The notes under the pieces: generated by a model
Seen by the model: only the letters and a program-made list of their open reading frames with translations
What the model was told of the DNA's origin: nothing
Database searches by the model: none
Source: a virus
Taxonomy: Duplodnaviria; Caudoviricetes
Direction: 5' to 3' (one strand)
IMG/VR virus record: IMGVR_UViG_3300025647_000034
Location: 1 to 62,767 of that record
DNA length: 62,767 nt
Made by a program: the position numbers and the translations under genes
In this document: piece by piece, positions 675 through 61,144 of the stretch
How the letters are laid out: each line of letters opens with the position of its first letter
Position numbering within the stretch: the stretch's first letter is position 1

Positions 675-682
675 TATATTTG
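675..682 (+). promoter_or_regulatory. Bacteroidota sigma70 -7 element TATATTTG
   Basis: Matches TAnnTTTG, upstream of the giant gene (likely ATG 707). Confidence 0.7.
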
Positions 683-706
683 CAGAAGTCTCAAGGACTT
701 CTAGCA

Positions 707-14910: not shown

Positions 14911-17313
14911 TTAAAATTCAATATCACCATCTTCCTCAACCTCTTCGTCAGGGGTCTTGATCATAATGGTTTTGCCTCTTGCGTTTCTGCTCTCCAATGG
15001 ATCGTTGCCAAATACAAATCGAGTGTAGGCCGTTAGCCACCTTGACATCTGACGTGTAGAGATAGCGTACTTTCCACGACCACCAAAGTCAGGGTACTCG
15101 GTAGTGAACGAGTTCATCAGATCAGCTACGTTCAAATACGTGTTGTACTTGAACCTAGTACCAAGCTCGTCCTTACACCAGTCTGCGAACTCTTTGCATG
15201 TCTCTGCATGGAACTTACGCTCCTTCAAGTTGACAAAGTCACTCTTGACCAGGCCATGCTCAAGGTACATCTGAAGACAACTGATCATGTAGTTATCAAA
15301 CCTACACCACTCGTCCTCGTCCCAGTCACTGAACAGCATACGTCCAAACTCTTCGAATGGCGTATAGTCCTTTGAATAGAACTTCTTGAACTCCAGCTCC
15401 CACTTTCTCCTCTCGAATGAGTTACCGGATCCCTTGATGGCATAGTTCGTTGTAATGACAATCTTCGGTGACCTTTCAAATGGTATTTTAATTGCGTCCT
15501 TATTCTTCTTCTCAAGCGTTATCCCCTCCGTTACGATAGAGAACAACCTCTCGAAGTCAAAGTGCTTTCTAACGTCGTCAAACGTCAGCACTTGAGTGTC
15601 TGCCGATACCAATTGGTATGCAAACGATCGCTCGAAATTAAACGCTTTGCCATCAATGGTCACCATCTTTTTCATCTTGCCGATGGCATTGACAAAGATA
15701 CCCTTACCAGTTCCACCTTCAGGCTGGTCAGATATCACCTCGTCATTGATGATCACAGCAGGAGAGTACGACAAACGCTTGTGCCCGTGCAGTAGGTACC
15801 CGATGGTACTCTCAATGGATCCTACACGCTCGCCATCCTTTCCGCTGATGTTCTGTATGAACTGCTTGAAGTCACACTTCGTGCTGTTGCACACCTCGAA
15901 GTCACGATCAATCACCTGATCCTTCCACACAAAACCATTGAGATCTATGTAGTCGATGATCCGTACGTCGTCCTTCTTTATCTGAACGGCACAGTTTCTA
16001 AAGTACAGGTACGATATATCTGCTGTGTCTTGCATGAAGTATACGTCAACAGGCGACAACAGCTTCAGATAGTCCTCCTTGAAGTACTTGGTCTTGTCAG
16101 CGAAGTGATTGTACACCGACATATCACCAAGCTTCTCTAGATAGCTCAGTACAAAGTCCTTGATGATATCTTCCGAAGTACTCGATATAAGGCTATTCGT
16201 AACCCTAACGAAGATAAACGCATCAGACCCATCCGGCCTATATTTCCTAAACCCATTGCTTTCTAAGAATTGTTTGAACAAATGTGGAGCGATGCTGACG
16301 ACGCCTCTGTCACTTCTGGTCCAGAACTCGGAAACACCCGAGTCTTCCTCTGCAGTTCGAATGACATTATCAATAGCGGAATCTTCAACTCCAGCATCCC
16401 TAAGCTGAGTCCGCAGTTCTTTTTTTGGCACACCTCCTCTGATTTGTCTCTTGACATTATCAATGGTGTCAGTGTCCTCAAAGCACTTTGTGTTAAACTT
16501 CTCCGTTGCTCGGTATGCGCTCTCAACAATGGTCTTGATCTCAGACGCAGGGAACCCGTCGTGCTGGTACCCAGCCATGACAAAGTGTGCCATGTCCTTG
16601 TTGATGCCAAAGTCATTAAACGCAGCGGCAAGCTTGAATAGGTTATTGTTACGCTCACCTACCACGACACCAAACTTCTTGTCCCACCAAAGGGTAAGGC
16701 GTCTAACGATCTCGTTGCTGTCCTTAATCTTTATTATTGGTGCGGAAGAAGAAACGTCATACTGCTCGTACTCACGTTCAACAATACCGGTCCACGTCAG
16801 GCTGTCCTCGTTGATGAAGATCATAGGGTCGTATGACTCATAGCATACACGGCTTATGTTCTTACAGCTCTTGTCGAAGTACTCAGAGTCATAGTGATTC
16901 TGAAGGCCCTCGAAGTAGTCTCTATGCTTGTCAGGATCAGCCGGTATCTTGACCAAAGCCTTTAGCCCGTTTCCGCTTGGAGACGTAAACACACTAAACG
17001 TGTACTTGTCCTTCATCAATACCTCACGCATGGAGCCCATCTCTGTGCGTCCAGGGAAGTTGTCAAAGTCAAGACAGATAAGGCCACTATGCTTAACAAG
17101 GGCCTTGTCTTCTCTCTTGTTGAACTCGCCAGAGAAACACACGGCAGGAAGCTGCTGTTTGATCAAGTTCCTCTTAGTCTTATCCTTCTCTGCTCGGATC
17201 TTAGACACAACATCCTTTGACTTGCCGTCACGGATGCGATCCAATACGACCATCACGTCCCTAAAGAACGGGGTCTCTGTGTCTTTAATGTCTTTAAATA
17301 TCGTTACGTTCAT
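14911..17313 (-). CDS. Primase-helicase: BT4734/VirE-N AEP domain + PriCT + SF3-type helicase
   Basis: CLDFD, SPSGNGLK, CYESYDP; GERNNNLFKLA; Walker A GGTGKG, FDDV, ITTNY. Confidence 0.85.
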   Translation of the reverse strand: MNVTIFKDIKDTETPFFRDVMVVLDRIRDGKSKDVVSKIRAEKDKTKRNLIKQQLPAVCFSGEFNKREDKALVKHSGLICLDFDNFPGRTEMGSMREVLMKDKYTFSVFTSPSGNGLKALVKIPADPDKHRDYFEGLQNHYDSEYFDKSCKNISRVCYESYDPMIFINEDSLTWTGIVEREYEQYDVSSSAPIIKIKDSNEIVRRLTLWWDKKFGVVVGERNNNLFKLAAAFNDFGINKDMAHFVMAGYQHDGFPASEIKTIVESAYRATEKFNTKCFEDTDTIDNVKRQIRGGVPKKELRTQLRDAGVEDSAIDNVIRTAEEDSGVSEFWTRSDRGVVSIAPHLFKQFLESNGFRKYRPDGSDAFIFVRVTNSLISSTSEDIIKDFVLSYLEKLGDMSVYNHFADKTKYFKEDYLKLLSPVDVYFMQDTADISYLYFRNCAVQIKKDDVRIIDYIDLNGFVWKDQVIDRDFEVCNSTKCDFKQFIQNISGKDGERVGSIESTIGYLLHGHKRLSYSPAVIINDEVISDQPEGGTGKGIFVNAIGKMKKMVTIDGKAFNFERSFAYQLVSADTQVLTFDDVRKHFDFERLFSIVTEGITLEKKNKDAIKIPFERSPKIVITTNYAIKGSGNSFERRKWELEFKKFYSKDYTPFEEFGRMLFSDWDEDEWCRFDNYMISCLQMYLEHGLVKSDFVNLKERKFHAETCKEFADWCKDELGTRFKYNTYLNVADLMNSFTTEYPDFGGRGKYAISTRQMSRWLTAYTRFVFGNDPLESRNARGKTIMIKTPDEEVEEDGDIEF

Positions 17314-20507: not shown

Positions 20508-21022
20508 TTTATGTTATAAATATCTCTGCAATTTTCACAAAATGCCATAAAGTTTTGCATGGCACTCAGCTTAACGTCTTTGTTACCACCACACTCAACA
20601 CACCTTAGATCAGACGAACTACTCATAAATGTCACGCACTCTTTTTGAGTTCCCTTAAAAAGTACTTGGTCATTGAAGTCAAAGACTTGGTACTCGTCAT
20701 CGAATGGTTGTAGGCTAACTAGTTTCATTTCTATTTGGTTAAAGTTTTCGTTGTAATATTGTTCTGCTTGATCATTAGTCCATTGTGTGTGTGGAAATTT
20801 ATCAAATACTCTTTGACCCTCAATGTGAGCATCCATAATCACCTCTTTCTCTTTCTGGAGCATTGATTTACACAATCTAATAAAGTGCTCTTTTACTTGA
20901 ACCATTTGATTGGCGTGTTGAACCATATATAGTTCATAACTCAACGGGTTGTCTTGAACGTATTTGTCATCAAGCATCCAAGTTTCTAAATGCTCAATCA
21001 ACTCTTGCATTGGTGTTTTCAT
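20504..21022 (-). CDS. Hypothetical protein with C-terminal CxxC..CxxC motif
   Basis: Start MKTPMQEL; CVECG and CENCR. Confidence 0.6.
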   Translation of the reverse strand: MKTPMQELIEHLETWMLDDKYVQDNPLSYELYMVQHANQMVQVKEHFIRLCKSMLQKEKEVIMDAHIEGQRVFDKFPHTQWTNDQAEQYYNENFNQIEMKLVSLQPFDDEYQVFDFNDQVLFKGTQKECVTFMSSSSDLRCVECGGNKDVKLSAMQNFMAFCENCRDIYNIK

Positions 21023-21091
21023 TTCTCTTTTATTTTTATTTATTCCCGTTCGGGTTAATATGCGCCTGTTTTTAATCATTTGCGCCCGTTT

Positions 21092-21388
21092 TTAGACTTT
21101 CCACAACTCATAGGTTGAGTTTAGTGTGTTGAATTTCACATAGTCATCCTTCTGATCTACTATCTCGGTTACCTTAGTGGTTAGCCATGTGAATTGCATT
21201 CTGTGAGGATCCAGCATACATGACCTGCCAATAGCTGGCTCATCATGTTGTACCTTGAAAGTTCCATCCTCATTCCACTCAATCCAGCCAATCTGTCTTC
21301 CATGATGAGTTAAGCCGTCTTGTTCACGGACTAGCCTGTATGTAGGCTCAATATCCATTGGGATTTTTGTTTGATTTAGTTTACTCAT
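21092..21388 (-). CDS. Hypothetical protein
   Basis: ORF in the operon. Confidence 0.65.
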   Translation of the reverse strand: MSKLNQTKIPMDIEPTYRLVREQDGLTHHGRQIGWIEWNEDGTFKVQHDEPAIGRSCMLDPHRMQFTWLTTKVTEIVDQKDDYVKFNTLNSTYELWKV

Positions 21389-21466
21389 AATATTTATCGG
21401 TCAAAGTTGGGCTATATATCGGTCAATTATAGCCCATACTGACTGAATTTAGCTAAATAGCGTCAG

Positions 21467-21625
21467 TTAAGTGACGGAATTATCATCTCCAAATCGTGAC
21501 CGATCCTTTGCATACTTTAGGGCTGCTTCGTATGTCGGGAATGTGGCCTCAACATTTTGGTTGACGTAGACCCTCCACAAAGGGATGCCGTTGACTTTGG
21601 CTTCTACAATTCTGACGCTTAGCAT
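21467..21625 (-). CDS. Hypothetical protein (52 aa, MLSVRIVEAK...)
   Basis: Open frame read manually. Confidence 0.5.
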   Translation of the reverse strand: MLSVRIVEAKVNGIPLWRVYVNQNVEATFPTYEAALKYAKDRSRFGDDNSVT

Positions 21626-23158: not shown

Positions 23159-23319
23159 ACCAACTCCTCCCCGATTCCAATTAACTCAGCGATAAAGAAC
23201 GCAGCGGCCATAGCCTCTAGTCCCATTCCGTTAATGAACACAGCCACACAGCCCAACAGGCGGATGAGGCTCTTGCACACGCTCAAGATGAGGTGCATCA
23301 GTGCATCAGGGTGCATCAT
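23155..23319 (-). CDS. Small membrane protein (54 aa)
   Basis: MMHPDALMHLILSVCKSLIRLLGCVAVFING...; ATGA coupling at both ends. Confidence 0.6.
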   Translation of the reverse strand: MMHPDALMHLILSVCKSLIRLLGCVAVFINGMGLEAMAAAFFIAELIGIGEELV

Positions 23320-23981
23320 ATAGCCACCTCCTGTTTGTTGTATGCGTCGTAGACGACACGCTGTCGTAACTCTAGGGCCTCGTTCACTGCGTCTGTCATG
23401 GTTGGATATTCTTGCATGATAGAAAGTTCAACAGAGGATCCTAGAACGCGTCCACGGAGGAATATGGTCTCGTCCTCCAACATGTCTAGATTGGTGACGA
23501 TGATGCTATCCTTCTCGAATAGTGAGTCGAGAGAGAACTTTGATACCGGCACCACGACGGGTGTCGATGCTTGGATGAAGTATCCGTTGCTAGGGTTAAA
23601 CTCTTGGGTCTCCATGTTGTACATGGCCTCGCCCTTGCTGATGATGGTTCGGTGAAATGTTAATACATTGCTCATTTTGTTGATGGTTAGGTCTGTTTCT
23701 TTTGAGAAGATCTTGTTGTACACGACATTCTCGTACTTGTAGTTCTTGGGTAGTGCTTTCCAGTTCTCGACAGCCTCGACTGCGTGAATCACGGTTGAGT
23801 GATCACGGCCAAAGAACTTGCCGATCGACTTCAGGGTGTGGCCCTGCTGTCGTAGGTAATACATGAGTGACTGACGAACAATCACATGGTCTCTTAGTCT
23901 GCGTCCGCTGTTGATAAAGAACTCGATGTTCATACCCATGTGGTTGCGGACAGCCTCTCTTACTTTTTGTTCAATTTCCAT
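23316..23981 (-). CDS. DnaA C-terminal-type HTH protein fused to a degenerate paralog of 24624-24986
   Basis: LKSIGKFFGRDHSTVIHAV signature; C-half from MSNVL (23675) aligns with the 24624 ORF. Confidence 0.75.
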   Translation of the reverse strand: MEIEQKVREAVRNHMGMNIEFFINSGRRLRDHVIVRQSLMYYLRQQGHTLKSIGKFFGRDHSTVIHAVEAVENWKALPKNYKYENVVYNKIFSKETDLTINKMSNVLTFHRTIISKGEAMYNMETQEFNPSNGYFIQASTPVVVPVSKFSLDSLFEKDSIIVTNLDMLEDETIFLRGRVLGSSVELSIMQEYPTMTDAVNEALELRQRVVYDAYNKQEVAI

Positions 23982-24157
23982 TTTTCTAAATTTTGTGTGT
24001 ACTCGTTGAATCCGTCAACATACGGGTCCCGTGGGGGACATGGTCTTGGTGGCACCTCGTGGACTACATTGCGTCTGTTGATGCGTCGTTGGATGTGCCA
24101 TTTGATAAATGCTTTAATCGTTCTCATAAAATTCATACATGAAGTGTTCGACAACAT
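23960..24157 (-). CDS. Hypothetical protein (start uncertain)
   Basis: Fills the gap in the operon. Confidence 0.45.
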   Translation of the reverse strand: MLSNTSCMNFMRTIKAFIKWHIQRRINRRNVVHEVPPRPCPPRDPYVDGFNEYTQNLEKWKLNKK

Positions 24158-24377
24158 CAGCGAAGTTGACGCCTCGGATGCTGTGCCACAGGTCAGGGTC
24201 CCAGTCCATCACTTGCGTAAGGCGTCCCCTCATCTCAAAGGCAGCGTCCGACCTGTCGAGGTCGCTGAAAAATACTCTGTCGCATACAAGTTTTACTGAT
24301 GCCATCAGCTGGGTGTGCGACTCAATGTGTTTGATTAGTCTTTCGGTCATGGTTGAGCGAATTAAGTAGTCTCTCAT
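24114..24377 (-). CDS. Hypothetical protein (start uncertain)
   Basis: ORF in the operon. Confidence 0.55.
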   Translation of the reverse strand: MRDYLIRSTMTERLIKHIESHTQLMASVKLVCDRVFFSDLDRSDAAFEMRGRLTQVMDWDPDLWHSIRGVNFADVVEHFMYEFYEND

Positions 24378-24390
24378 GCGTGCATGAGAG

Positions 24391-24580
24391 AATGCTGAAA
24401 TGCTGTTTCAATCTCCCTTTTTTACTTTTTATTTCTTTTATTCTTTCTATGTTTTAATTTTTCTAGAAATGGGAAATAAAACAGCATTTCTACATTTTAG
24501 TAAGTAAGTTATTGAAAGTTAGTTAATTACACGATGCTGTTTTGAATGCTGTACGATGCTGTTTTAGACGAAACAGCACT
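24391..24580. repeat. Origin-like element A: AAACAGCA repeats around an AT-rich, strand-biased tract
   Basis: Several AAACAGCA/TGCTGTTT copies; degenerate inverted copy at 30445-30643. Confidence 0.65.
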
Positions 24581-24623
24581 GACCAACACAAGATTACTTT
24601 AGTAGCCTGACAATAGCGTGACA

Positions 24624-24986
24624 TTAGAGGTCTATCGATCGATTTTGTGCCAAATCCCAAACAGCATTTTGGTTGTTGCTCAGACCATAGGCAAGGGCCT
24701 CTTCTAGGGTCTCAAAATGTAGACTGATGTCAAGGTACCACGACTCGGTCTCTTGGTCAAACCAACACCCAAGGTAGGTCTCTCCGTCAGATAATATGTC
24801 TGCATTGAATAGGGTGTATAGTTTGACTTGGTTGACTAGGTCTTGGCCATTGCGGACCTCCATCTCGTGTCCCTCCATGGATGCCATGTAGCCGTGGCTC
24901 GGTGCCTCCTCTCCGGTGGTGATGTTGTAACTGAAGCCGGTATTGTTGGCCTCAGCGTTGCGGGATAGTGCTAGTAGATTGCTCAT
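24624..24986 (-). CDS. Early protein, possibly SAM-lyase-like fold; same domain occurs in the giant protein
   Basis: GFSYN...GY...YLGCW....YLDIS...A...G..NQNAVWDL; start MSNLLA. Confidence 0.6.
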   Translation of the reverse strand: MSNLLALSRNAEANNTGFSYNITTGEEAPSHGYMASMEGHEMEVRNGQDLVNQVKLYTLFNADILSDGETYLGCWFDQETESWYLDISLHFETLEEALAYGLSNNQNAVWDLAQNRSIDL

Positions 24987-25237
24987 TTTACAATTAGGTT
25001 GTTTACTTTGGTTAATGTTTGCAAGTTGATGAGTCGGTAGTTCTTTTTGCTCATGTCCCACACGCACAGGTACCCGAGTTCTTGTGGGTCGTATGCCCGT
25101 GGCTTTGCGTTTTCTTTCAGGCCTTTTACTACGCCTGAGCGTCCATGGAGACGGCGGGTTGTGCCGTCTTTCTTAGTGAATTCGCAAGAGAAGAAGCGTC
25201 CACTCTTGATAATTTGGATTGATTGTTTCTTGTTCAT
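24983..25237 (-). CDS. SH3/WYL_2-like beta-barrel protein
   Basis: FTKKDGTTR...VWDM...YRLIN pattern. Confidence 0.65.
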   Translation of the reverse strand: MNKKQSIQIIKSGRFFSCEFTKKDGTTRRLHGRSGVVKGLKENAKPRAYDPQELGYLCVWDMSKKNYRLINLQTLTKVNNLIVK

Positions 25238-25239
25238 AG

Positions 25240-25443
25240 TTAAAATTCTTCGTCGGTTGATAATAGGCTGATGCTAGTCAGCGTGGTGTTGGTCTCCTCG
25301 TCGTAAAGGTCCTCGAATACATGGCCGATGCTGTGCACATCAGAGTTCAGGTCGTAGCGGAAGTTTACACTTAGGTCGTCAAGGCTCACGCCATGCTCGA
25401 TGGCGAGTTCTTGGATTTGGCGAATCAGTTTAGATGCGTTCAT
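25240..25443 (-). CDS. Early hypothetical protein, acidic (MNASKLI...)
   Basis: ORF in the operon. Confidence 0.6.
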   Translation of the reverse strand: MNASKLIRQIQELAIEHGVSLDDLSVNFRYDLNSDVHSIGHVFEDLYDEETNTTLTSISLLSTDEEF

Positions 25444-25702
25444 AGATGTTGTTGTAGTAGTTGATTGAGTTCTGGATGGTGCCAGTGGTTCCCTCTTGGA
25501 GCTCGTCTCGGCTTGGAACCTTGTTGCCGTAGGCGTCATAGAATGCTTTCTTTGGTAGGAAACATGCACCTGACTTGAGCATACTCATGGCAAGTCGGCC
25601 CGTTGAGCCTTCCATTTGCCACGCTGTGCCGTTGTCGATGAGTCGTTGGATCGGGGCGTACCCCATGTCTTGTTGGATTGTTCGAATGTCTTTGATTTTC
25701 AT
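25430..25702 (-). CDS. Early hypothetical protein
   Basis: ORF in the operon. Confidence 0.7.
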   Translation of the reverse strand: MKIKDIRTIQQDMGYAPIQRLIDNGTAWQMEGSTGRLAMSMLKSGACFLPKKAFYDAYGNKVPSRDELQEGTTGTIQNSINYYNNIYERI

Positions 25703-25863
25703 GGTAGTTTAATTATTTCGTAGTACTCATAACCCTCTTCAGGGTCGCTGTTTAAATGTTCGCACAGCAAATCTGCATCTCCTTTGGTCATCTCGGTTGA
25801 GATGAACTCGGGCCATCCGGTCATATCGAAACCGATGATGGCCCACTTGTTCAGTTCTCTCAT
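25699..25863 (-). CDS. Early hypothetical protein (54 aa, MRELNKW...)
   Basis: ATGA coupling at both ends. Confidence 0.6.
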   Translation of the reverse strand: MRELNKWAIIGFDMTGWPEFISTEMTKGDADLLCEHLNSDPEEGYEYYEIIKLP

Positions 25864-26183
25864 ATCTCGTTCCATTTAGGGTCTTCTAGGTCGACCATGA
25901 CTTGCATGGAATCTTCTAGGTCCTCGGTCCAAATGGTCACCCATACTAGGTCGCCAATTATTGTGGCGTTGTACCCGTTTTCTTCTAGGTATGCATGGAC
26001 GGCCTCTGCCTTGCTCATGGCGACGAACTCTCTGTATTCCTCGCCATCGTTGAACTCTTGGATAGACTTGTAGTCGGTGCCAAAGTGCTCGTTGTGCTCT
26101 TGAATCATTAACTCCACATCTTGGAAGGTAAGGTTCACGACGAGAGCATCTGCGTCGTCTGTTTCGTTGTAATAAAATTTCAT
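25860..26183 (-). CDS. Early hypothetical protein, highly acidic
   Basis: About 26 D/E vs 5 K/R in 107 aa. Confidence 0.7.
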   Translation of the reverse strand: MKFYYNETDDADALVVNLTFQDVELMIQEHNEHFGTDYKSIQEFNDGEEYREFVAMSKAEAVHAYLEENGYNATIIGDLVWVTIWTEDLEDSMQVMVDLEDPKWNEI

Positions 26184-26185
26184 GG

Positions 26186-26551
26186 TTATATTTCGTTTTC
26201 TAGTTCATGGTTTGCTGTGTATAAGTGCCCGTCTACCCATACTGAGATGACATTCCCTTGGTTGTCTCGAACAACACGGGTCTGCTCAGTTGTTACATGG
26301 TGGTTGTACTCGTGTTGGTGGACCTCTCTCTCACTATCATCGAAGCACTCTGCAACAAGGTCGTCGATGTGAAACTTGTACTGGGCCAAGTTGTCGGCCA
26401 AGGCCTTGTCGCCATGGTCGAGAGCGGCCTCTATGTCTTGCTCTAGCCACTCGCTTAGGTCCTCCAAGGTGTTGACGATTTGGCTGTCTGTACTTCTCGT
26501 GAATGAGAATAGGTTGAGCGCAAGGCTCACGATGAAGATTGTCTTTTTCAT
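26186..26551 (-). CDS. Early protein with signal peptide
   Basis: N-terminus MKKTIFIVSLALNLFSF. Confidence 0.7.
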   Translation of the reverse strand: MKKTIFIVSLALNLFSFTRSTDSQIVNTLEDLSEWLEQDIEAALDHGDKALADNLAQYKFHIDDLVAECFDDSEREVHQHEYNHHVTTEQTRVVRDNQGNVISVWVDGHLYTANHELENEI

Positions 26552-26572
26552 AATAGTTTGATTTAGGGTTGG

Positions 26573-26821
26573 TTATAGGTACTTGGTCCTGATTTCTTTT
26601 TTGATTACATTCATTCGGTCCTTGGCGATTTGCTCTTCGGTCCAAGAGTCGTCGTCGTCGTTCCGATAGGCGGTTACTAGGGCGTCTAGCCATTCGCCAA
26701 TGGCGTACGCCTCGACCAACTCAAACCTAGCGTCTAGGTACATGGTCACTAGTTCTTCGAATGTGACTCGCTTCGAGAGGTCCTCGACCTCCATGGCGAT
26801 TACTTCAGGCTTGAGTTTCAT
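26573..26821 (-). CDS. Early hypothetical protein
   Basis: ORF in the operon. Confidence 0.65.
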   Translation of the reverse strand: MKLKPEVIAMEVEDLSKRVTFEELVTMYLDARFELVEAYAIGEWLDALVTAYRNDDDDSWTEEQIAKDRMNVIKKEIRTKYL

Positions 26822-27168
26822 TCTCCGTCCTCCTCTCGATTTTGTACGCTGTCCAAAGAGTCAAAGTACTCGGTGATTAAGTCCCATGCGGCATCTGCCT
26901 TGCTTAGGTCGTTGTTCAGTTGCAAGACATCTAGCGTCGCCAGAATCATTGCGGATTCGATTTTTGTTAGCATAGTTTGATTTTTTGTTGATGGCTCGAT
27001 GCCATAGGTGTTGTTGTTGTCGAATGAATGGCCTTCGTCAATCAAAGATTCGCTCAAGTCGTCATAGATTTGATAGACCTCATGATTTGACTGGTGGAGT
27101 GATTTCGCTTCAGATGCGTCAACTATGTGCCATGTGAAGTTGTCTGGGGTTGTGATTGTTTTTTTCAT
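26818..27168 (-). CDS. Early hypothetical protein
   Basis: Directly downstream of mini-tRNA 1. Confidence 0.65.
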   Translation of the reverse strand: MKKTITTPDNFTWHIVDASEAKSLHQSNHEVYQIYDDLSESLIDEGHSFDNNNTYGIEPSTKNQTMLTKIESAMILATLDVLQLNNDLSKADAAWDLITEYFDSLDSVQNREEDGE

Positions 27169-27186
27169 AATAGTTTGATTTATGTT

Positions 27187-27235
27187 TGGCTCCCCACCTA
27201 GGTCATGAGCCTTCGCCTTCTATAGGTGGTGGGGA
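27187..27235 (-). ncRNA. Mini-tRNA-like element 1 (49 nt)
   Basis: TCCCCAC-CA.CCT.ATAGA.AGG.C-GAAGG.CTCATGA.CCTAG-GTGGGGA-GCCA. Confidence 0.75.
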
Positions 27236-27241
27236 TGGGTG

Positions 27242-27508
27242 CTACCCGTGGAAATCTAGGTCGGGGTAGACATGGATGGTGTCGGGGTCACCGAACTTGG
27301 TCTGGAACTTGTAGAACAAGTCGCCAAGGTCGTTGCCTTGCTTCTCATGCCACTTGCAGAATTCGTCGAAGCGGTAGCGTGGCACGACCAAGTAGCCCAT
27401 GTCGTAGTTGTCGTATTGCAACTCGGGGTCGGGGCTGATGTACTGCGTGTGAAGGTTGCTGTCTCTGTAGAACAAGCGGTGGTCCCTTCTGAAACTTACG
27501 CCTTCCAT
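27242..27508 (-). CDS. Early hypothetical protein (MEGVSFRRD...)
   Basis: TAATG-coupled start. Confidence 0.65.
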   Translation of the reverse strand: MEGVSFRRDHRLFYRDSNLHTQYISPDPELQYDNYDMGYLVVPRYRFDEFCKWHEKQGNDLGDLFYKFQTKFGDPDTIHVYPDLDFHG

Positions 27509-27600
27509 TATCCGAAGATGATTAAGGCGAACAGACATGCCGCAAGAGCGGGTAACAAGGCTAAAAAGCCAACTAGGGTTTCTTTTAAATCTTGATTCAT
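27508..27600 (-). CDS. Early 30-aa membrane peptide
   Basis: MNQDLKETLVGFLALLPALAACLFALIIFG; coupled to the next gene. Confidence 0.55.
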   Translation of the reverse strand: MNQDLKETLVGFLALLPALAACLFALIIFG

Positions 27601-27602
27601 GG

Positions 27603-27995
27603 TTAGAAAATTTGAATGGGTTCGAAAGATGTTGATACGAATGTGTTGTCTACTAGGTCTGCGACTTGGAATTGGCGTTCATCAAGTTTGTTGCACAAGG
27701 CCTTGGCTTGATGATGGTGAAGGCCTTTCTTCACAAGGCCAATCTTTTCGCCTCTGAAGAACTGCGCTACACCCCATCTTGGGGGTAGTTCAGTCACTAC
27801 CCAATCGCTGTCGTAGTTCAGTTCCTCGACAGCAAAATCTGTCACCTCTCGAATATCGAATCGGTACACATTGCTGCTTACCTTGTCGATGCGAATCAGT
27901 GGCTTGAAGCCTTGAAGAGCGACGATTAAGTTCATGTGCTCGTCGATGAATTCTTGTGGGTCGTAGCCCTCGTAATAAGTTACTAGTTTGTTCAT
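27603..27995 (-). CDS. Early hypothetical protein
   Basis: ORF in the operon. Confidence 0.65.
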   Translation of the reverse strand: MNKLVTYYEGYDPQEFIDEHMNLIVALQGFKPLIRIDKVSSNVYRFDIREVTDFAVEELNYDSDWVVTELPPRWGVAQFFRGEKIGLVKKGLHHHQAKALCNKLDERQFQVADLVDNTFVSTSFEPIQIF

Positions 27996-28000
27996 GGTTA

Positions 28001-28255
28001 TTAATAGTTAGTCCAATCGTCTGATTCGTCGTTGTTAAGGTCGGTAGCAATTAAGATGTTCTCGATGTGAGACCAAGCGTAGTCGGCCACATCAGTGGGT
28101 CGATAAAGGTCGAAGCCATTGTCGATGGCCCATGCCTTAAACTGACGGGCGTCCTCCTCAGCGAATGCCAAGCGGCGCTTCAGTTCGTTGATTTGCTTGA
28201 TGGCGTCACTCAAGGTGGCGGCCAATTCTTGTTCGGTCATTTTGTGATTTTTCAT
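28001..28255 (-). CDS. Early hypothetical protein
   Basis: Directly downstream of mini-tRNA 2. Confidence 0.65.
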   Translation of the reverse strand: MKNHKMTEQELAATLSDAIKQINELKRRLAFAEEDARQFKAWAIDNGFDLYRPTDVADYAWSHIENILIATDLNNDESDDWTNY

Positions 28256-28272
28256 CTTAGTTTGATTAGGTT

Positions 28273-28321
28273 TGGCTCCCTGAGTGAGTCATGAACTCTC
28301 GCCGTCTTATGGGCTCAGGGA
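28273..28321 (-). ncRNA. Mini-tRNA-like element 2 (49 nt)
   Basis: TCCCTGA-GCCCATAAGACGGC-GAGAG.TTCATGA.CTCAC-TCAGGGA-GCCA. Confidence 0.75.
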
Positions 28322-28330
28322 AGGTTGTGG

Positions 28331-28687
28331 TTAGTACCACTCGGTGTAGTAACACATGTCGTCGGCGTAGGCCGCCTCGATGATGTCGGCGTTTGACATG
28401 GTGGCGGGGTAGCCGCATGACTCTCTAAGGTACTTGGCCGCAAGGTCGGCGTCGTCGGTGTAACGGGCGCCATCTGCGATGCAAAAGCCCTCATTGAAAA
28501 CCTTGCCCGTCCAAGAGCAGACACGATGGTCGTCTGCGTCTTCTGAGTGGGTGAACAAAAGTGTCGTAGACCTGATGAACTCGACAGCCTTGTCTCTAGT
28601 CTCAAATGTGTCAAGCAGTTCGCCTGAAAGGGCATAGTATGCCGACCATGTCAGGTTGAAATTTGGGGTTAAGATTACTTCTCTCAT
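28331..28687 (-). CDS. Early hypothetical protein
   Basis: ORF in the operon. Confidence 0.65.
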   Translation of the reverse strand: MREVILTPNFNLTWSAYYALSGELLDTFETRDKAVEFIRSTTLLFTHSEDADDHRVCSWTGKVFNEGFCIADGARYTDDADLAAKYLRESCGYPATMSNADIIEAAYADDMCYYTEWY

Positions 28688-28693
28688 GGTGGT

Positions 28694-28948
28694 TTAGTAT
28701 GTGATAATGTGGTCGGTTGAGATTCCAATTGACTTGCAAGTATCGAAGCCTTGCTCAGTTAGGCAGAACATGTAGCCCATGTCCATTCCCTCGTAGGCGT
28801 CGTAGACTAGGCCCTTCTTGATGAGCGACCCTAGGACGCCCTTCTCTTGGTTGCCGCAGACCTCTTGAAAGCCTGAGTAGTTGTCTTCGGTTTGTTCCCA
28901 CGCTACCTTTTCCAAGGTGGCAGTTTCTAGTTGTGTTAGATTTGTCAT
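28694..28948 (-). CDS. Early protein, possible winged-helix
   Basis: GVLGSLIKKGLV...LTEQG pattern. Confidence 0.65.
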   Translation of the reverse strand: MTNLTQLETATLEKVAWEQTEDNYSGFQEVCGNQEKGVLGSLIKKGLVYDAYEGMDMGYMFCLTEQGFDTCKSIGISTDHIITY

Positions 28949-28965
28949 AATAGTTTAGATTGGGT

Positions 28966-29014
28966 TGGCTCCCCGCCTAGGTCTCGAACCTACGCTGTCT
29001 CTCAGTGACGGGGA
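28966..29014 (-). ncRNA. Mini-tRNA-like element 3 (49 nt)
   Basis: TCCCCGT-CA.CTG.AGAGA.CAG.C-GTAGG.TTCGAGA.CCTAG-GCGGGGA-GCCA. Confidence 0.8.
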
Positions 29015-29021
29015 TGGGTGG

Positions 29022-29249
29022 TTAGTCTCGGTTGATGCTGTAAAGCATGTGCCAAAAGTCATCCAAGAATCCATCAACATCGTTGAATCGTTGTGCGATT
29101 GCTTGGTCGCTGTCGTCAGACCAATCGTCGTAGGTCTCTCTCATCCTGTCTGAGATTTTGTACTTGGCGTGGAGCCTACGCATCTTGTCGCAGACAGCAG
29201 CGATGTCATTCTCCATGGATAGGAGTTGTTTGTCGGTGAACTTTTTCAT
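29022..29249 (-). CDS. Early hypothetical protein (MKKFTDKQLL...)
   Basis: Lies between the hammerhead and mini-tRNA 3. Confidence 0.65.
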   Translation of the reverse strand: MKKFTDKQLLSMENDIAAVCDKMRRLHAKYKISDRMRETYDDWSDDSDQAIAQRFNDVDGFLDDFWHMLYSINRD

Positions 29250-29262
29250 GGTGGTATTGTTT

Positions 29263-29312
29263 GTCAAAGACGCCCGAGGGCGTTTCGGCTATTGAAGCCT
29301 CATCAGTTTGAC
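29263..29312 (-). ncRNA. Type I hammerhead ribozyme
   Basis: GTCAAA-CTGATGA-GGCT.TCAAT.AGCC-GAA-ACGCC.CTCG.GGCGT-C-TTTGAC: full catalytic core, three perfect stems, GUC site (cut between 29269 and 29268). Confidence 0.93.
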
Positions 29313-29492
29313 TTAGTTTTTAAAACTTGACAAATAGTGGTCTACATCGTCTTGGTTCAATCCAAAAAAGACCTCAATTTCGCCATTTGGTTTTTTGATT
29401 TTAACAATGTGTCTTTTGAAATTCCAACAGGCATTTGGCATTTCTACATAGTTCTCAATTACTTCAATCGTGTTGTTTTGTTCGTTGTTCAT
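29313..29492 (-). CDS. First early gene, hypothetical (59 aa, MNNEQNNTIE...)
   Basis: Open frame read manually; its TAA abuts the hammerhead. Confidence 0.65.
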   Translation of the reverse strand: MNNEQNNTIEVIENYVEMPNACWNFKRHIVKIKKPNGEIEVFFGLNQDDVDHYLSSFKN

Positions 29493-29508
29493 AATGGTTT
29501 AGTTTAAG

Positions 29509-29559
29509 TGGCTCCACAAGGCCCGACTCGAACGGGCGGCAAACCTATTGGCTTGGGAA
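29509..29559 (-). ncRNA. Mini-tRNA-like element 4 (~51 nt)
   Basis: TTCCCAA-GC.CAA.TAGGT.TTG.C-C-GCCCG.TTCGAGT.CGGGC-C-TTGTGGA-GCCA; canonical T-arm, imperfect acceptor stem. Confidence 0.7.
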
Positions 29560-29637
29560 GTATGTAGTGCTCACCTAGTGGCGTTAAGGTGTGGGTGGAG
29601 GGAGCCATCCCTCGGCACTATGCAATAGTATCAGTAA

Positions 29638-29671: not shown

Positions 29672-29703
29672 CAAAGTTGGGGAGAGGTTTTGACTCCACC
29701 AAA
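29672..29703 (-). promoter_or_regulatory. Early promoter (TTTG-N20-CAACTTTG)
   Basis: Bacteroidota -33/-7 architecture with one mismatch; predicted TSS ~29667. Confidence 0.6.
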
Positions 29704-29724
29704 TTTTTCTTGAAGAAATGTGGA

Positions 29725-29743
29725 ATTTAGAATGATTCTAAAT
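29725..29743. promoter_or_regulatory. Fur-box-like palindrome ATTTAGAATGATTCTAAAT
   Basis: Perfect 9-1-9 inverted repeat; resembles the Fur box described for Flavobacteriales (from memory). Confidence 0.6.
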
Positions 29744-29796
29744 AATACTCATTGAATATCAATCAGTTAGCCCTAAAAAAAGTTTTATGCAAAATG

Positions 29797-31215: not shown

Positions 31216-31863
31216 ATGGATATCAAAGACCTCAACCTAATCCAAAGTCCATTGGATGCGTCACAGTACGTGAACGAGACAACGACGAAGAATCAAATTG
31301 TATTGCACCATACTGTGAGTGGTCCTGACGCTGCCAAGGTGGTTCGGAGTTGGAACGCCAACAAGGAGAGAATTGCCACGTGTGTGGCGATCTCAAGGAA
31401 CGGTGAGATCCACCAGGCATTTCCTTCGAGCAAGTGGGCCTATCATTTGGGATTGGGCACGAAGCACTTCACCAAGGTTGGTCTCCCGTACCGCAATTTG
31501 GACAAGACTACTATTGGCATCGAGTTGTGTGCGTTTGGTTGGTTAAAGTACGATGCAGGCAAGTTCTATAACATATATGGAGGAGAGATTAACTCGAACG
31601 AAGTAGAAGAATTAGAGACCCCATACAAAAACCATAGGTTTTGGCATTCATATTCAAATGAACAAATTGAATCTACGATCAAGCTGATACAATACTGGTC
31701 TAAGAAGTATGATATACCAGCTGTATACAACGAAGACATGTGGGACGTTAATAAAGATGCAATGTCTGGAATTCCAGGTGTTTGGACTCACACAAGTTAT
31801 CGTTACGATAAAAGCGACTGCTATCCATCCTCAGATCTCATTAATGCGTTGAAGTCTATATGA
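31216..31863 (+). CDS. Endolysin, N-acetylmuramoyl-L-alanine amidase (Amidase_2)
   Basis: IVLHHT, AYHLG, IGIEL, THTSY..KSDCYP; start MDIKDL after promoter TACCTTTG at 31204. Confidence 0.88.
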   Translation: MDIKDLNLIQSPLDASQYVNETTTKNQIVLHHTVSGPDAAKVVRSWNANKERIATCVAISRNGEIHQAFPSSKWAYHLGLGTKHFTKVGLPYRNLDKTTIGIELCAFGWLKYDAGKFYNIYGGEINSNEVEELETPYKNHRFWHSYSNEQIESTIKLIQYWSKKYDIPAVYNEDMWDVNKDAMSGIPGVWTHTSYRYDKSDCYPSSDLINALKSI

Positions 31864-32567
31864 TTGTTTACAGACACATAAGGATTGATAATAATGAGCC
31901 ATTCTATATTGGAATAGGGTCTAAAAAATCAAGAGCGTTTTCCAAGGACAGTAGAAACCCACTGTGGAAACGTGTTGTTAAAAAAACCAAATATCGTGTA
32001 GATATACTGTTTGACGATTTGACAAAAGAAGAAGCCTGTGAAAAAGAAAAAGAGTTTATAGCCTTGTATGGTAGAAAGAACTTAGGAACTGGAACGCTGT
32101 GTAATCTTACTGCAGGCGGAGATGGTACTGTCGATCTTGTTATATCTAAAGAAACAAAGAAGATATGGAAAGAACAGAGAAAAGGTTCTGGAAATTCCAT
32201 GTATGGAAAAACTCACACGGACTCAACAAAAGAAAAAATATCAATAGCAAACAAGGGAAGAAAAATGACTGAAGAGCAGGTTGCCGCGATGTCAGAAAGA
32301 GCTAAGGGCCGTGTTCTTAAAGAATCATCAAAAGAAAAGTTGTCTATAATGAGGAATACTCTTGTGGAGTCTTTTTGTTATAATGGACAAGTTCCATTAA
32401 TAAACGATGAGACTGGAGATGTGATACCATCGATAAAGAAGTTTTGCAAAAAATTCAACATGCCAAGCTCAACCGCAAAAAGAAGAATAAAGAACGGATG
32501 GGTTGATAAGTCATTTGGGTATAGAAAAATGACAGACACAGAGATTGAGGCGTTGAAGGGGATCTAG
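31860..32567 (+). mobile_element. Free-standing GIY-YIG-type homing endonuclease with NUMOD3 repeats
   Basis: IVYRH...FYIGIG..R..E..NLTAGGDG; GKTHTDSTKEKIS; AT-rich relative to flanks. Confidence 0.8.
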
Positions 32568-36400: not shown

Positions 36401-37930
36401 ATGGCAATTTTAAAGCATGTGCATCTTGGCGGAGAAGGCCAGGAGAAGTTAATCAAAGGCATCAACACATTGGCAGATGCCGTGAAGAGCACGCTGGGTC
36501 CAAAGGGCCGTACGGTGCTGATCGAGTCTGAGAACCACACCCATGGCGTGACCATCACAAAAGATGGCGTCACGGTGGCCAAGTCCATTACGCTGTTCGA
36601 CCCTGTCGAGAACATGGCGGTGAACGTGGCACGTGAGGCGTCAGAGAAGACGGCCACACAGGCTGGTGATGGAACCAGTACTAGTATAGTACTGGCTCAA
36701 GCAATAGTCAATGAAGCCAAGAAGCACGCCAAGGACGGCACCGACATGGGAACGCTGGCCAAGGAGATTCAGGTCATTGCAGCGAAGGTCGTTGACTACA
36801 TCAAGGATACGGCCATCCCAGTAACGCCTGAGACGTTGGTTGATGTGGCTACTATTAGTGCCAACGGTGACGCTGAGCTTGGTGCACTGATCGCTGACGC
36901 CTACTCAAAGGTGTCATACGTGACGGTGGCTGACTCAAAGACCCACGAGACCTATGCCGACATCATTGAGGGCATCAAGGTGGACAGACCTGTTGGGTCA
37001 AGATTCTTTATTACAGACCAAAAGAAGAATGAATGCGTGCTTCAGGACCCCTACATCTTGGTCTCTGACCAGAAGATCGAGAACCTATCGTCTTTGGAGC
37101 ACGTGCTGGCGCCAATTGTACAGGGTGGCAAGAGTTTGTTGATCATCTCTGAGATGGGGATGAACGCTTTGAACACTCTGAACGTGAACGCCATGAAGGG
37201 CACGATCAAGGTGTGCCAGGTGTTGCCTCCTGACTTCGGCTACAGACGTAAGGAGCTGATGGAGGACATCGCTGCTATGGTCGGTGCACGACTGGTGAGC
37301 GAGGACACGGGCGATGAGCTGAGCCTGGTTGGTATGGACTGGTTGGGTAAGGCCGACAAAGTCATCAGCGGACAGGAGCAGACCATCATTGTAGGTGGAC
37401 ACGGTGAGGAGAGTGCGATTAAGGTGAAAATTGAATCCCTATCGGGATCCAATGACACGTTCGACAAGCAGCGTGTGGCCAATATGACGGGTGGTATCGG
37501 CATTATTTACGTCGGTGCTGACTCTGAGATCGAGCAGAAGGAGAAGAAGGACCGTGTTGACGACGCTGTGTGTGCTGTTAGAGCCGCCATGGACGAGGGG
37601 ATCCTTGCAGGGGGAGGAGTCGCGTTACATAACGCTACTTCAGTCGTTGTCAAGTCGACCTCAACAGCCTCAAAAATCATGTCCGAGGCGTTAAAAGCGC
37701 CAATGAGGCAGATTTTGAAGAACGCTGGCGACGATTGGTCCTATGTAGAGGGTCAAATGAGCGAGCCAGGGCTCGGTTTCGACGTCAGAGCGCAACGATA
37801 TGGCGATATGATAAAGATGGGTGTCACTGACCCTGCGAAAGTGACTAGAACGGCCCTACAAAACGCTGTGAGCGTAGCTACGACCATTATGGGGACAAAC
37901 GTTATTGTATCTAATGTAAGAGATTTATGA
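36401..37930 (+). CDS. groEL: Phage chaperonin GroEL (Cpn60)
   Basis: TLGPKGR, ITKDGVTVAK, AGDGTST, GILAGGG, DPAKVTRTALQNA. Confidence 0.95.
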   Translation: MAILKHVHLGGEGQEKLIKGINTLADAVKSTLGPKGRTVLIESENHTHGVTITKDGVTVAKSITLFDPVENMAVNVAREASEKTATQAGDGTSTSIVLAQAIVNEAKKHAKDGTDMGTLAKEIQVIAAKVVDYIKDTAIPVTPETLVDVATISANGDAELGALIADAYSKVSYVTVADSKTHETYADIIEGIKVDRPVGSRFFITDQKKNECVLQDPYILVSDQKIENLSSLEHVLAPIVQGGKSLLIISEMGMNALNTLNVNAMKGTIKVCQVLPPDFGYRRKELMEDIAAMVGARLVSEDTGDELSLVGMDWLGKADKVISGQEQTIIVGGHGEESAIKVKIESLSGSNDTFDKQRVANMTGGIGIIYVGADSEIEQKEKKDRVDDAVCAVRAAMDEGILAGGGVALHNATSVVVKSTSTASKIMSEALKAPMRQILKNAGDDWSYVEGQMSEPGLGFDVRAQRYGDMIKMGVTDPAKVTRTALQNAVSVATTIMGTNVIVSNVRDL

Positions 37931-60413: not shown

Positions 60414-61144
60414 TGGCTAATTATACACTAACATATTCTCAACAGGGACAAGGGTGGACATCATTCCACTCTTACTATCCCGATTGGATGCTTGGAATGT
60501 CAAGCCGCTTTTATACGTTTCATGAAGGTAAACTGTACTTACACAACGACCCAAATGTAGACAGGAATTCGTTTTATGGAGACCCGACTGTTGCGTCCAA
60601 AGTGGTGATGGTTTTTAACCAAGATCCATTGTCGGCTAAGATGTTTAAGACATTGGAGGTAGAGACAGATTCACCTTGGGACACCGTTATTACAACTGAC
60701 ATGTCTTCAGGGTCAATGGATGCGTCTTACTACGACTTGAAGGAGGGCAATTATTTCACGTACATACGTAGAAACCAAAACGCCACTAACCTTGATTTGT
60801 TGTCAGCGCAGGGAATTGGAGCATTGCAGTCTGTAGTTGGTACTACTTTGAACTTTGCATTTCAAGTTCCAGGAGCCATTAGTGTGGGAGATGTGATTTA
60901 TTACGATAACGCTGGCACTATTGTTCAAGTTGGAGTTGTCTCTGCTCATACTGGTAGTTCTATAACGGTTACTACATTACTGAGTTCGCCATCACCTGGA
61001 GATTTTATTCTTTACATTAAGAACAGCCAAGCTGAGTCATTTGGCGCCCGTGGTTATTACATGCAGGTTGAATTAACTAACGATAGCACGACTGACATCG
61101 AGCTATTTTCTGTTTCTTCAGAGGTGTTCAAGAGTTACCCGTAA
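60413..61144 (+). CDS. Tail protein (nozzle C-terminal-like)
   Basis: TAATG-coupled; GWTSFHSY.P, GARGYY. Confidence 0.65.
   Translation: MANYTLTYSQQGQGWTSFHSYYPDWMLGMSSRFYTFHEGKLYLHNDPNVDRNSFYGDPTVASKVVMVFNQDPLSAKMFKTLEVETDSPWDTVITTDMSSGSMDASYYDLKEGNYFTYIRRNQNATNLDLLSAQGIGALQSVVGTTLNFAFQVPGAISVGDVIYYDNAGTIVQVGVVSAHTGSSITVTTLLSSPSPGDFILYIKNSQAESFGARGYYMQVELTNDSTTDIELFSVSSEVFKSYP

Follow-up and report, generated by a model that had tools for sequence, protein, structure and literature searches.

Mini-tRNA elements in a phage operon

We analyzed the complete 62,767-bp virus record IMGVR_UViG_3300025647_000034 of the IMG/VR database, referred to here as the window (the whole stretch of DNA) and, among its relatives, as G000. 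It is the genome of a podophage of around 63 kb, the named relatives of which infect Flavobacteriia. On its minus strand, the first ~2.4 kb of a leftward operon hold a promoter-proximal block of nine small open reading frames (ORFs), and the long gaps of the operon are occupied by four short tRNA-like elements, E1–E4, called mini-tRNAs below, and by a candidate hammerhead ribozyme (Table 1). Ten ORFs were tested (the nine of the block and that at 26186-26551): nine were without a match, and the tenth had a weak one to a PHROG of unknown function. The operon is presumably early, a label that derives from its position only. The four elements had been noticed in an initial annotation made from the letters of the sequence, and their placement on the coding strand was right, because the genes here lie on the minus strand.

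Table 1 Features of the operon and its control region in the window (R1, covariance model of the four elements with flanks; G002, a related record; both are described in the text)
Feature	Position	Strand	Upstream ORF	Downstream AUG	GCCA end to AUG (nt)	Description
E1	27235-27187	minus	27242-27538	27168	18	49 nt; acceptor stem UCCCCAC/GUGGGGA; weakest T stem of the four
E2	28321-28273	minus	28331-28687	28255	17	49 nt; acceptor stem UCCCUGA/UCAGGGA
E3	29014-28966	minus	29022-29249	28948	17	49 nt; acceptor stem UCCCCGU/GCGGGGA with U7.G66 wobble pair; canonical UUCGAGA T loop
E4	29558-29509	minus		29492	16	50 nt; UCCCAAG / 14-nt linker / GCCCG-UUCGAGU-CGGGC / CUUG(U)GGA / GCCA
Promoter-proximal block	26573..29492	minus				Nine small same-strand ORFs (59-130 aa), split by E4, hammerhead, E3, E2 and E1
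'Empty' junction	26575-26547	minus				Element-type flanks, UAA-CCAACCC then UAAAUCAAACUAUUAUG, with no mini-tRNA between; R1 23 bits, 52 model positions deleted
Candidate type-I hammerhead	29312-29263	minus				GUCAAA-CUGAUGA-stem II-GAAA-stem III-GUC (cut) UUUGAC
Leader hairpin upstream of E4	29598..29613	minus				GAGGGA-UGGC-UCCCUC; in G002 GAGAGA-CGGC-UCUCUC (compensatory change)
Candidate sigma-70-like leftward promoter	29762-29735	minus				TTGATA-16-TAGAAT, upstream of E4
Candidate near-Bacteroidota-type leftward promoter	~29703-29672	minus				TTTG-N20-CAACTTTG, conserved in G002

All four elements share one plan. A linker of 14 nt joins the 7-bp acceptor stem to a T-arm whose loop measures 7 nt (CUCAUGA, UUCAUGA, UUCGAGA or UUCGAGU), and GCCA forms an unpaired tail. 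The linker, which measures 11–16 nt across the copies described below and often holds a tiny hairpin, stands in place of the D and anticodon arms. The 3' strand of the acceptor stem abuts the T stem without an intervening nucleotide, giving a 7-bp acceptor and a 4–5-bp T stem (~12 stacked pairs). Acceptor stems, T loops and linker were thus found as first described, by minus-strand reading, and so were the boundaries of E1–E3. For E4, the start at 29559 added one U and has been moved by that nucleotide; the acceptor stem of E4 requires one bulged U. The T-arms exist, but their stems are weaker than had been implied, with 3/5, 4/5, 4/5 and 5/5 standard pairs in E1, E2, E3 and E4, respectively. 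E1–E3 start 6, 9 and 7 nt 3' of the stop codon of the upstream ORF, so the 'punctuation' between a stop codon and the next start was borne out, while E4 precedes the first small gene, within its 5' leader. The claim that GCCA ends 16–18 nt ahead of the next ATG holds for all four.

E1–E4 are not canonical tRNAs, as the D arm and the anticodon arm are missing. ARAGORN predicted no cloverleaf tRNA gene and no transfer-messenger RNA (tmRNA) in the window. Searches against Rfam 15 gave no match at the gathering score in the window and none at the elements even at E ≤ 10, and the same was true of the elements of G002. As predicted from sequence, the elements have the acceptor/T-arm minihelix geometry of ribonuclease P (RNase P) substrates. 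Their 3' end resembles that of tRNA-Asn, as had been remarked: 50 of 81 matches in phage contigs to a pattern running from the T loop to GGAGCCAA lie in tRNA-Asn genes called by ARAGORN. This first pattern was dropped as a mini-tRNA finder, the sequences that it retrieved being mostly real tRNA-Asn genes. We also rejected the possibility that the elements are intrinsic terminators: they are followed by A/C-rich leaders, not by a GC-rich hairpin and U run, and no terminator-like site was found on the minus (coding) strand at 24000-29560.

The element family in related and unrelated phages

Two covariance models were built, R1 from the four elements with their flanks and R2 from the cores only. 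With filters off, R1 recovered E1–E4 from the whole window at 79.7–89.8 bits, the next match reaching 23 bits. The cores alone, without flanks, scored 35.5–44.6 bits, and R2 gave 50.3, 50.4, 54.1 and 49 bits for E1, E2, E3 and E4, respectively.

The primase gene (14911-17313, minus) was used as bait and retrieved 51 related loci, 42 of which were searched as whole records; the nine left out are contigs of ≤11.8 kb. R1 matched one of the 42, G002 (59,215 bp, primase identity 81%), which carries four elements on the operon strand: ACCCAAG...CUUGGGU-UCCA, UCCCCUG...CAGGGGA-GCCA, UCCCGCC...CGCGGGA-CCCA and UCCCCGA...ACGGGGA-ACCA (G2a–G2d). Across these, the discriminator is U, G, C or A and CCA is constant, and pair 1-72 turns from U-A to A-U. 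Over 43 clade records, R2 gave strong matches only in G000 and G002. E4 has orthologues in G002 (L177:5248-5296), G043 and G044, and E1 is the positional counterpart of G2c, both following orthologous genes. The covariance-model check on phage genomes that had been proposed at the outset yielded four more elements in G002 and, as described next, fewer copies elsewhere, with Rfam giving no match.

A DNA pattern in which the T loop must follow the 5' TCCC closely occurred at 41 places in viral contigs. Scoring with R2 and a pairing check left clear copies in G043, G044 and G045 (same clade, primase identity 57–60%), one or two in each, and additional copies in unrelated phage contigs (L225/G047, L208, L233, L214 and L232). 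Two doubtful members were kept apart, the L220 type, which lies inside a 720-aa ORF, and L235, from a contig of 71% GC. Among the 41 viral matches, 11 had 7/7 acceptor pairs and at least 4/5 T-stem pairs outside ARAGORN tRNAs. Among the matches listed for cellular genomes (82 in 80 loci, 22 of them in tRNA genes), none had a full acceptor and T stem outside a tRNA (11/41 versus 0/82 among those listed; Fisher P = 2e-6). An E4-type pattern found 20 loci, three of which were known copies; R2 confirmed none of the remaining 17, one being a partial match without a T-arm. Neither R2 nor the hammerhead model RF00163 matched three named relatives (MW202828.1, NC_055853.1 and NC_055855.1). BLASTN of E4 and E3 against GenBank phages matched only tRNA genes with the 3' half, no record covering 80% of the query, and a 5-kb region searched in the same way gave no match. 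In three of the unrelated phage contigs (L225:9067-9113, minus; L208:710-756, minus; L233:133-181, plus), a conserved hairpin of the UGUCGGGAAUAGUUCCCGACA type lies directly 3' of the mini-tRNA and the next ORF begins ~48 nt past CCA.

Compensatory changes were frequent in the stems. Among the eight copies of G000 and G002, 92.4% of cells were paired and 7 of 12 pairs showed double changes, the covariation score being 0.64 versus 0.13 in shuffled alignments (reached by 0/500 shuffles). We also aligned 20 copies from 12 chosen sources, leaving out duplicates and matches in or resembling fragments of tRNA genes. In this set, 95.7% of cells were paired, double changes occurred in 9 of 12 pairs and the score was 0.622 versus 0.120 (again reached by 0/500 shuffles), and sliding the partners by 1–3 columns lowered pairing to 25–55%. 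RNAalifold, unaided, arrived at the 7-bp acceptor stem and at a T stem of 4 bp that closes a 7-nt loop. Several positions are highly conserved. The T loop is closed by G53-C61 in 20/20 copies, C56 is present in 8/8 close copies and pair 3-70 is C-G in 20/20 copies. All eight G000 and G002 copies end in NCCA, the discriminator being G, U, C or A, and so do 19 of the 20 aligned copies, in 12 of which the tail was imposed by the search pattern. The observation of four elements is confirmed, and their structure and their grouping as a family are well supported.

Placement and turnover

Ten of 12 clade copies start 5–9 nt past a same-strand stop codon, and the other two (E4 and G2a) lead the operon. 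The distance from CCA to AUG is 15–21 nt in eight of the 12 and 1, 2, 2 and 5 nt in the other four, an AUG 1–2 nt behind CCA being found in three genomes. In G002, the AUG 2 nt past the CCA of G2d is a real start, since it opens a full-length orthologue of the window ORF at 25237-24983 (84/84 aa, 77% identity). The window junction at that ORF has no element, unlike its counterpart in G002, and the presence of elements thus varies between close relatives. The genes themselves also turn over. G002 has homologues of only two of the first 10 window ORFs, and the ORF between the E4-type element and the hammerhead is unrelated in the two genomes (no BLASTP alignment at E ≤ 100). As the conserved element and hammerhead flank unrelated ORFs, the RNA elements are more conserved than the genes that they separate.

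Full-size tRNA-like sequences were also seen in the clade. In G001, whose primase is 99% identical, other sequence (L122:198-1120 versus window 20518-21490) takes the place of the region of a 191-aa ORF and ends in a tRNA-Thr(UGU)-like gene, 24 nt ahead of a conserved 69-aa ORF; this difference is a module swap at a tRNA-type junction. Other members carry cloverleaf tRNA-like sequences at L141:3666-3738, L143:6181-6274, L144:1543-1615, L168:8789-8861 and L133:1901-1993 (all plus), on the operon strand and upstream of the primase; their anticodon loops depart from the norm, with 6 or 8 nt or with long insertions. ARAGORN made nine predictions on the 51 clade loci, all nine on the gene strand and five of them with non-standard anticodon loops.

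A candidate hammerhead ribozyme at a neighbouring junction

The candidate hammerhead occupies the gap that separates the first small gene from the second. It begins directly 3' of the stop codon at 29315-29313 and is predicted to cut between 29269 and 29268, 19 nt ahead of the AUG at 29249. Its type-I core is intact (CUGANGA ... GAAA ... UH cut site); stem I is open, and the other two stems, II and III, are closed. The window copy lies under the Rfam cut-offs (RF03152, 20.8 bits versus a gathering score of 56.3; RF00163, no match at E ≤ 0.1), and the syntenic copy in G002 (L177:5503-5552, plus) passes Hammerhead_1 at 37.5 bits versus a cut-off of 34. Another syntenic copy is present in G045 (L245:3974-4023, minus), and stems I and II show compensatory changes among the three. 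Across the clade, 12 of 43 records had Hammerhead_1 matches at E ≤ 0.1, one of them over the cut-off.

The order mini-tRNA, small ORF, hammerhead, ORF(s), mini-tRNA is repeated in G000, G002 and G045. The hammerhead cut would leave 19–21 nt to the AUG, compared with 15–21 nt from CCA to AUG, and these matching leader lengths fit both devices doing the same job.

Possible role of the elements

We lean, with moderate confidence, towards E1–E4 being processing signals that mimic tRNA and act in cis, on the polycistronic RNA made from the small genes next to the promoter. Each element would fold as the acceptor/T-arm half of a tRNA with a free NCCA tail. Bacterial RNase P reads the acceptor/T-arm half of a tRNA, and the host enzyme would therefore be expected to cut 5' of nucleotide 1, that is, 5–9 nt behind the upstream stop codon. 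The host tRNA 3'-end machinery would probably make a second cut, at CCA or immediately 3' of it, at least where an AUG lies 1–5 nt behind CCA. Both cuts would divide the operon into defined mRNAs with short unstructured leaders, and RNase P-type cutting at the elements would then do the same job as the hammerhead at the neighbouring junction. Minihelices of acceptor stem and T-arm are classic model substrates of RNase P, and certain RNase Z enzymes cut after CCA. Published reports describe natural non-tRNA substrates of RNase P, including phage M3 RNA, P1/P7 C4 RNA and polycistronic mRNAs (PMC11143913), the role of the RCCA motif (PMC12710915) and tRNA-like t-elements of plant mitochondria, where RNase P and RNase Z are guided by them to the ends of mRNAs (PMC1920247). 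Whereas the elements themselves are observed, we infer the cleavage steps, the enzymes and the effect on expression. The processing reading is best supported by context, all of it indirect, namely the placement between stop and start codons, the retention of NCCA with a variable discriminator and the hammerhead at an equivalent junction. Compensatory changes in the stems, the contrast between viral and listed cellular matches and a coding strand free of terminator-like sites at 24000-29560 also speak for it. As to the 5' stabilisers and released decoys suggested initially, the analysis speaks neither for nor against them.

A number of points weigh against it. Folding of single sequences gave weak z-scores (-1.67, -2.63, -2.11 and -0.96). 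A loose structural descriptor had 16 matches versus 9.1 ± 3.4 in 100 shuffles, and a strict one had two in the window versus a shuffle mean of 0.98, at least two being found in 51 of 200 shuffles. The bare descriptor (7 bp, linker, T-arm and NCCA) is therefore no commoner in the window than by chance, and the signal lies in the family, not in copies taken singly. Within the family, the alignments used for the pair counts were fitted to the model structure, because MAFFT alone misaligned E4 and put gaps in stems. In 12 of the 20 copies, the search pattern itself had demanded CCA, the TCCC/GGGA pairs 1–4, G53-C61 and some of the T loop, and it is the free pairs (5–7 and the T stem) that carry the covariation evidence. 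Two copies found by the model only do not end in NCCA (L233:906-952, which is among those aligned, and the weak match L225:8284-8333). The full T-loop consensus UUCRANY occurs in four of the eight close copies (E3, E4, G2a and G2c); of the other four, E1 and E2 have U at the position of A58 and the loops of G2b and G2d begin with AGC, not UUC. The T stem of E1 has only three standard pairs. At E ≤ 0.5, R2 matched 3 of 43 primase-linked records, one of them with a weak 14 bits, and since most relatives are without the element, it must be dispensable. The polarity of the two devices also differs, as the element would stay with the downstream RNA after a 5' RNase P cut and a hammerhead remains on the upstream RNA. 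Finally, a ribosome terminating 5–9 nt upstream would unwind the acceptor stem, so that folding would compete with translation.

An extension of the processing reading, possible but on the unlikely side, is that enzymes of host tRNA maturation cut out the elements at both ends. The outcome would be leaderless or short-leader mRNAs and an early pool of ~48-nt CCA-ending mini-tRNAs, possible mimics in trans, and mini-tRNAs and hammerheads would be interchangeable RNA-processing modules. Such mimics could occupy RNase P or the CCA-adding enzyme, or absorb toxins and defence enzymes that attack tRNA acceptor ends.

It seems unlikely that the released RNA is itself the product, with mRNA cutting as a by-product, although this is compatible with a role as processing signals and the two are not mutually exclusive. 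In that case, ~48-nt CCA-ending RNAs excised on both sides would act in trans as tRNA mimics and might serve as a sponge or decoy for RNase P, the CCA-adding enzyme, or toxins and defence nucleases attacking tRNA acceptor ends. NCCA is retained with all four discriminators, the AUG 1–5 nt past CCA in four copies suggests a precise 3' cut, and several copies per genome lie in the first-transcribed region. However, the elements have no anticodon arm and therefore cannot decoy anticodon nucleases, and with discriminator and stem sequences so variable, no single synthetase identity fits. G3.U70 is the identity rule for alanine, and C3-G70 in 20/20 copies rules it out. Placement at stop/start junctions would be needless for a trans-acting RNA, and most relatives are missing the elements. 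We regard as rather improbable that the elements are uncleaved structural insulators, stem-loops that guard mRNA ends from exonucleases or uncouple translation of neighbouring genes and owe their tRNA likeness to an ancestral tRNA-Asn gene. With -15.6 to -19.6 kcal/mol, the stems are stable, eight clade copies sit just outside the ~15-nt zone upstream of AUG and the 3' half matches tRNA-Asn genes. A plain hairpin, however, needs no conserved NCCA tail, no T-type 7-nt loop with an invariant G-C (20/20) and no 7 + 5 geometry, and copies with AUG 1–2 nt past CCA would block initiation unless removed.

Some of the turnover described above would suit junction cassettes acting at the level of DNA, that is, recombination linkers or small mobile insertions that shuffle early gene modules, with RNA features secondary; T4-type phages have promoter-stem-loop cassettes. 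The flanks are repeated too and one junction consists of flanks without an element, orthologous junctions may have an element in one genome and none in the other (as at G2d, whose downstream gene has a window orthologue without one), an unrelated ORF stands between the conserved E4-type element and the hammerhead in G000 versus G002, and only 2/10 of the first window ORFs have a G002 homologue. Yet recombination needs sequence identity, and here the stems differ between copies while pairing is kept; the U.G pair of E3 works only on the sense RNA strand, and no recombinase was found among the ORFs tested, a subset of those in the window. We hold this explanation to be very improbable. It is scarcely credible that each element starts a transcript as a hairpin promoter of the N4-like kind, used by an RNA polymerase that the phage carries. 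E4 does stand at the operon head, and a 3142-aa virion-type ORF (680-10108) is present, but this giant ORF has no Pfam family, PDB sequence match or DxDGD-type motif, which gives no support for an RNA polymerase. Host-type promoter candidates conserved in G002 lie upstream of E4, a start site could not fit where CCA and AUG are 1–2 nt apart, the T-loop and NCCA features are specific to tRNA and the hammerhead implies long processed transcripts. Integron attC-like sites were set aside as well: R/L core boxes are absent, no integrase was seen in the ORFs tested and the tRNA-specific features would go unexplained.

Relation to known tRNA-like signals

In animal mitochondria, tRNAs between cistrons serve as cut marks, and the mRNAs are almost without untranslated regions. 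The role proposed here is alike in that tRNA-shaped RNAs between cistrons would be cut by tRNA-maturation enzymes. The mitochondrial marks are functional tRNAs, whereas the phage elements lack the decoding half and therefore can only be a signal or a mimic. The tRNA-like domain of tmRNA has an acceptor stem, a T-arm and NCCA, is processed by RNase P and combines G3.U70 for alanylation with an mRNA-like domain. The elements share its acceptor stem, T-arm and NCCA but differ in having C3-G70 in 20/20 copies and no mRNA-like or tag-encoding domain.

Plant mitochondrial t-elements (Forner et al., 2007; PMC1920247) are tRNA-like structures in mRNA precursors with a T-arm motif and an acceptor-like stem, located at mRNA 5' or 3' ends, where cuts by RNase P and RNase Z have been proposed or shown. 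They differ in being organellar, non-canonical cloverleaves compared with the 48–50-nt minihelix here, their CCA is not encoded (non-encoded C/A being added) and they form no serial array between short cistrons. Non-tRNA substrates of RNase P in phages and bacteria include phi80 M3 RNA, the P1/P7 C4 antisense RNA precursor and E. coli intercistronic operon sites (PMC11143913). These resemble the elements in their coaxial acceptor/T-type helix and 3' RCCA, and some are of phage origin; they are single small RNA precursors or weak mRNA sites, however, and no repeated family at stop/start junctions appears among them. Intergenic hammerheads of phages and prophages (Perreault et al., 2011, PMC3088659; PMC6765202) likewise lie between cistrons and are suspected of processing polycistronic RNA, but they are self-cleaving, need no host enzyme and remain on the upstream fragment. 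In the phage studied here, a hammerhead is physically interleaved with the mini-tRNAs.

In the literature searched, we found no description of acceptor/T-arm minihelices between phage genes, and an unnamed entry in the tables of PMC10690425 may still be one. That catalogue of 10,006 candidate viral RNAs mentions tRNA-like candidates overlapping ARAGORN calls. The initial remark that no described family matches is in agreement with this, with Rfam 15 and with BLASTN against GenBank phages. By analogy, the elements would be the phage counterpart of mitochondrial tRNA punctuation and of plant t-elements.

If the cuts are real, tRNA punctuation would not be confined to organelles, and a phage would have stripped the tRNA to its RNase P handle for use as a genetic comma. 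At equivalent junctions, the phage would employ either a self-cutting or a host-cut RNA, and this interleaving offers a testable answer to what self-cleaving ribozymes do in phages and bacteria, the purpose of which is still described as unknown in PMC6765202. Such elements go unannotated because tRNA finders and Rfam miss them. They mark module boundaries in a fast-changing early region and would serve as compact operon insulators for Bacteroidota.

Control region and genome setting

The two candidate leftward promoters (29672..29762) lie upstream of E4, which would therefore stand in a leader of an estimated ~110–170 nt. A perfect 9 + 9 palindrome, ATTTAGAAT-G-ATTCTAAAT, at 29725-29743 in the divergent control region is conserved in G002, overlaps the -10 of the sigma-70-like candidate and looks like an operator. 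Three rightward ORFs (30203, 30669 and 31204, plus) have a TAnnTTTG box exactly 4 nt 5' of their ATG, a hint that Bacteroidota-type promoters give leaderless transcripts there. Read in reverse complement, the CCAAAC(A/C)UA found 3' of E1 and E2 (27181 and 28267, plus) is also TAnnTTTG, with TTG at -33 spacing. An antisense promoter behind E1 and E2 was considered and set aside, as TAnnTTTG is absent behind E3 and E4 and in G002.

Bacteroidota start translation without Shine-Dalgarno pairing, and only 5 of the 59 window ORFs of at least 100 aa have a Shine-Dalgarno-like core. The primase carries a BT4734-like domain. Named relatives of the large terminase comprised 93 records, including phages of Flavobacterium (68), Cellulophaga (15), Tenacibaculum (2) and Maribacter (1).

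On the minus strand at 24378-24623, a 246-nt AT-rich gap with around six ACAGCAT-type repeats in both orientations adjoins a gene for a DnaA C-terminal helix-turn-helix protein (23316-23981) and is a possible origin of replication or middle control region. A search that took the DnaA_C-like protein as bait retrieved no related loci. On the plus strand, the 3142-aa virion-type ORF at 680-10108 matches no Pfam family and no PDB sequence, and the ORFs at 31860-32567, 36401-37930 and 60407-61144 include a NUMOD3 homing-endonuclease-like gene, a GroEL-type chaperonin and a protein with the C-terminal domain of the crAss 'muzzle'.

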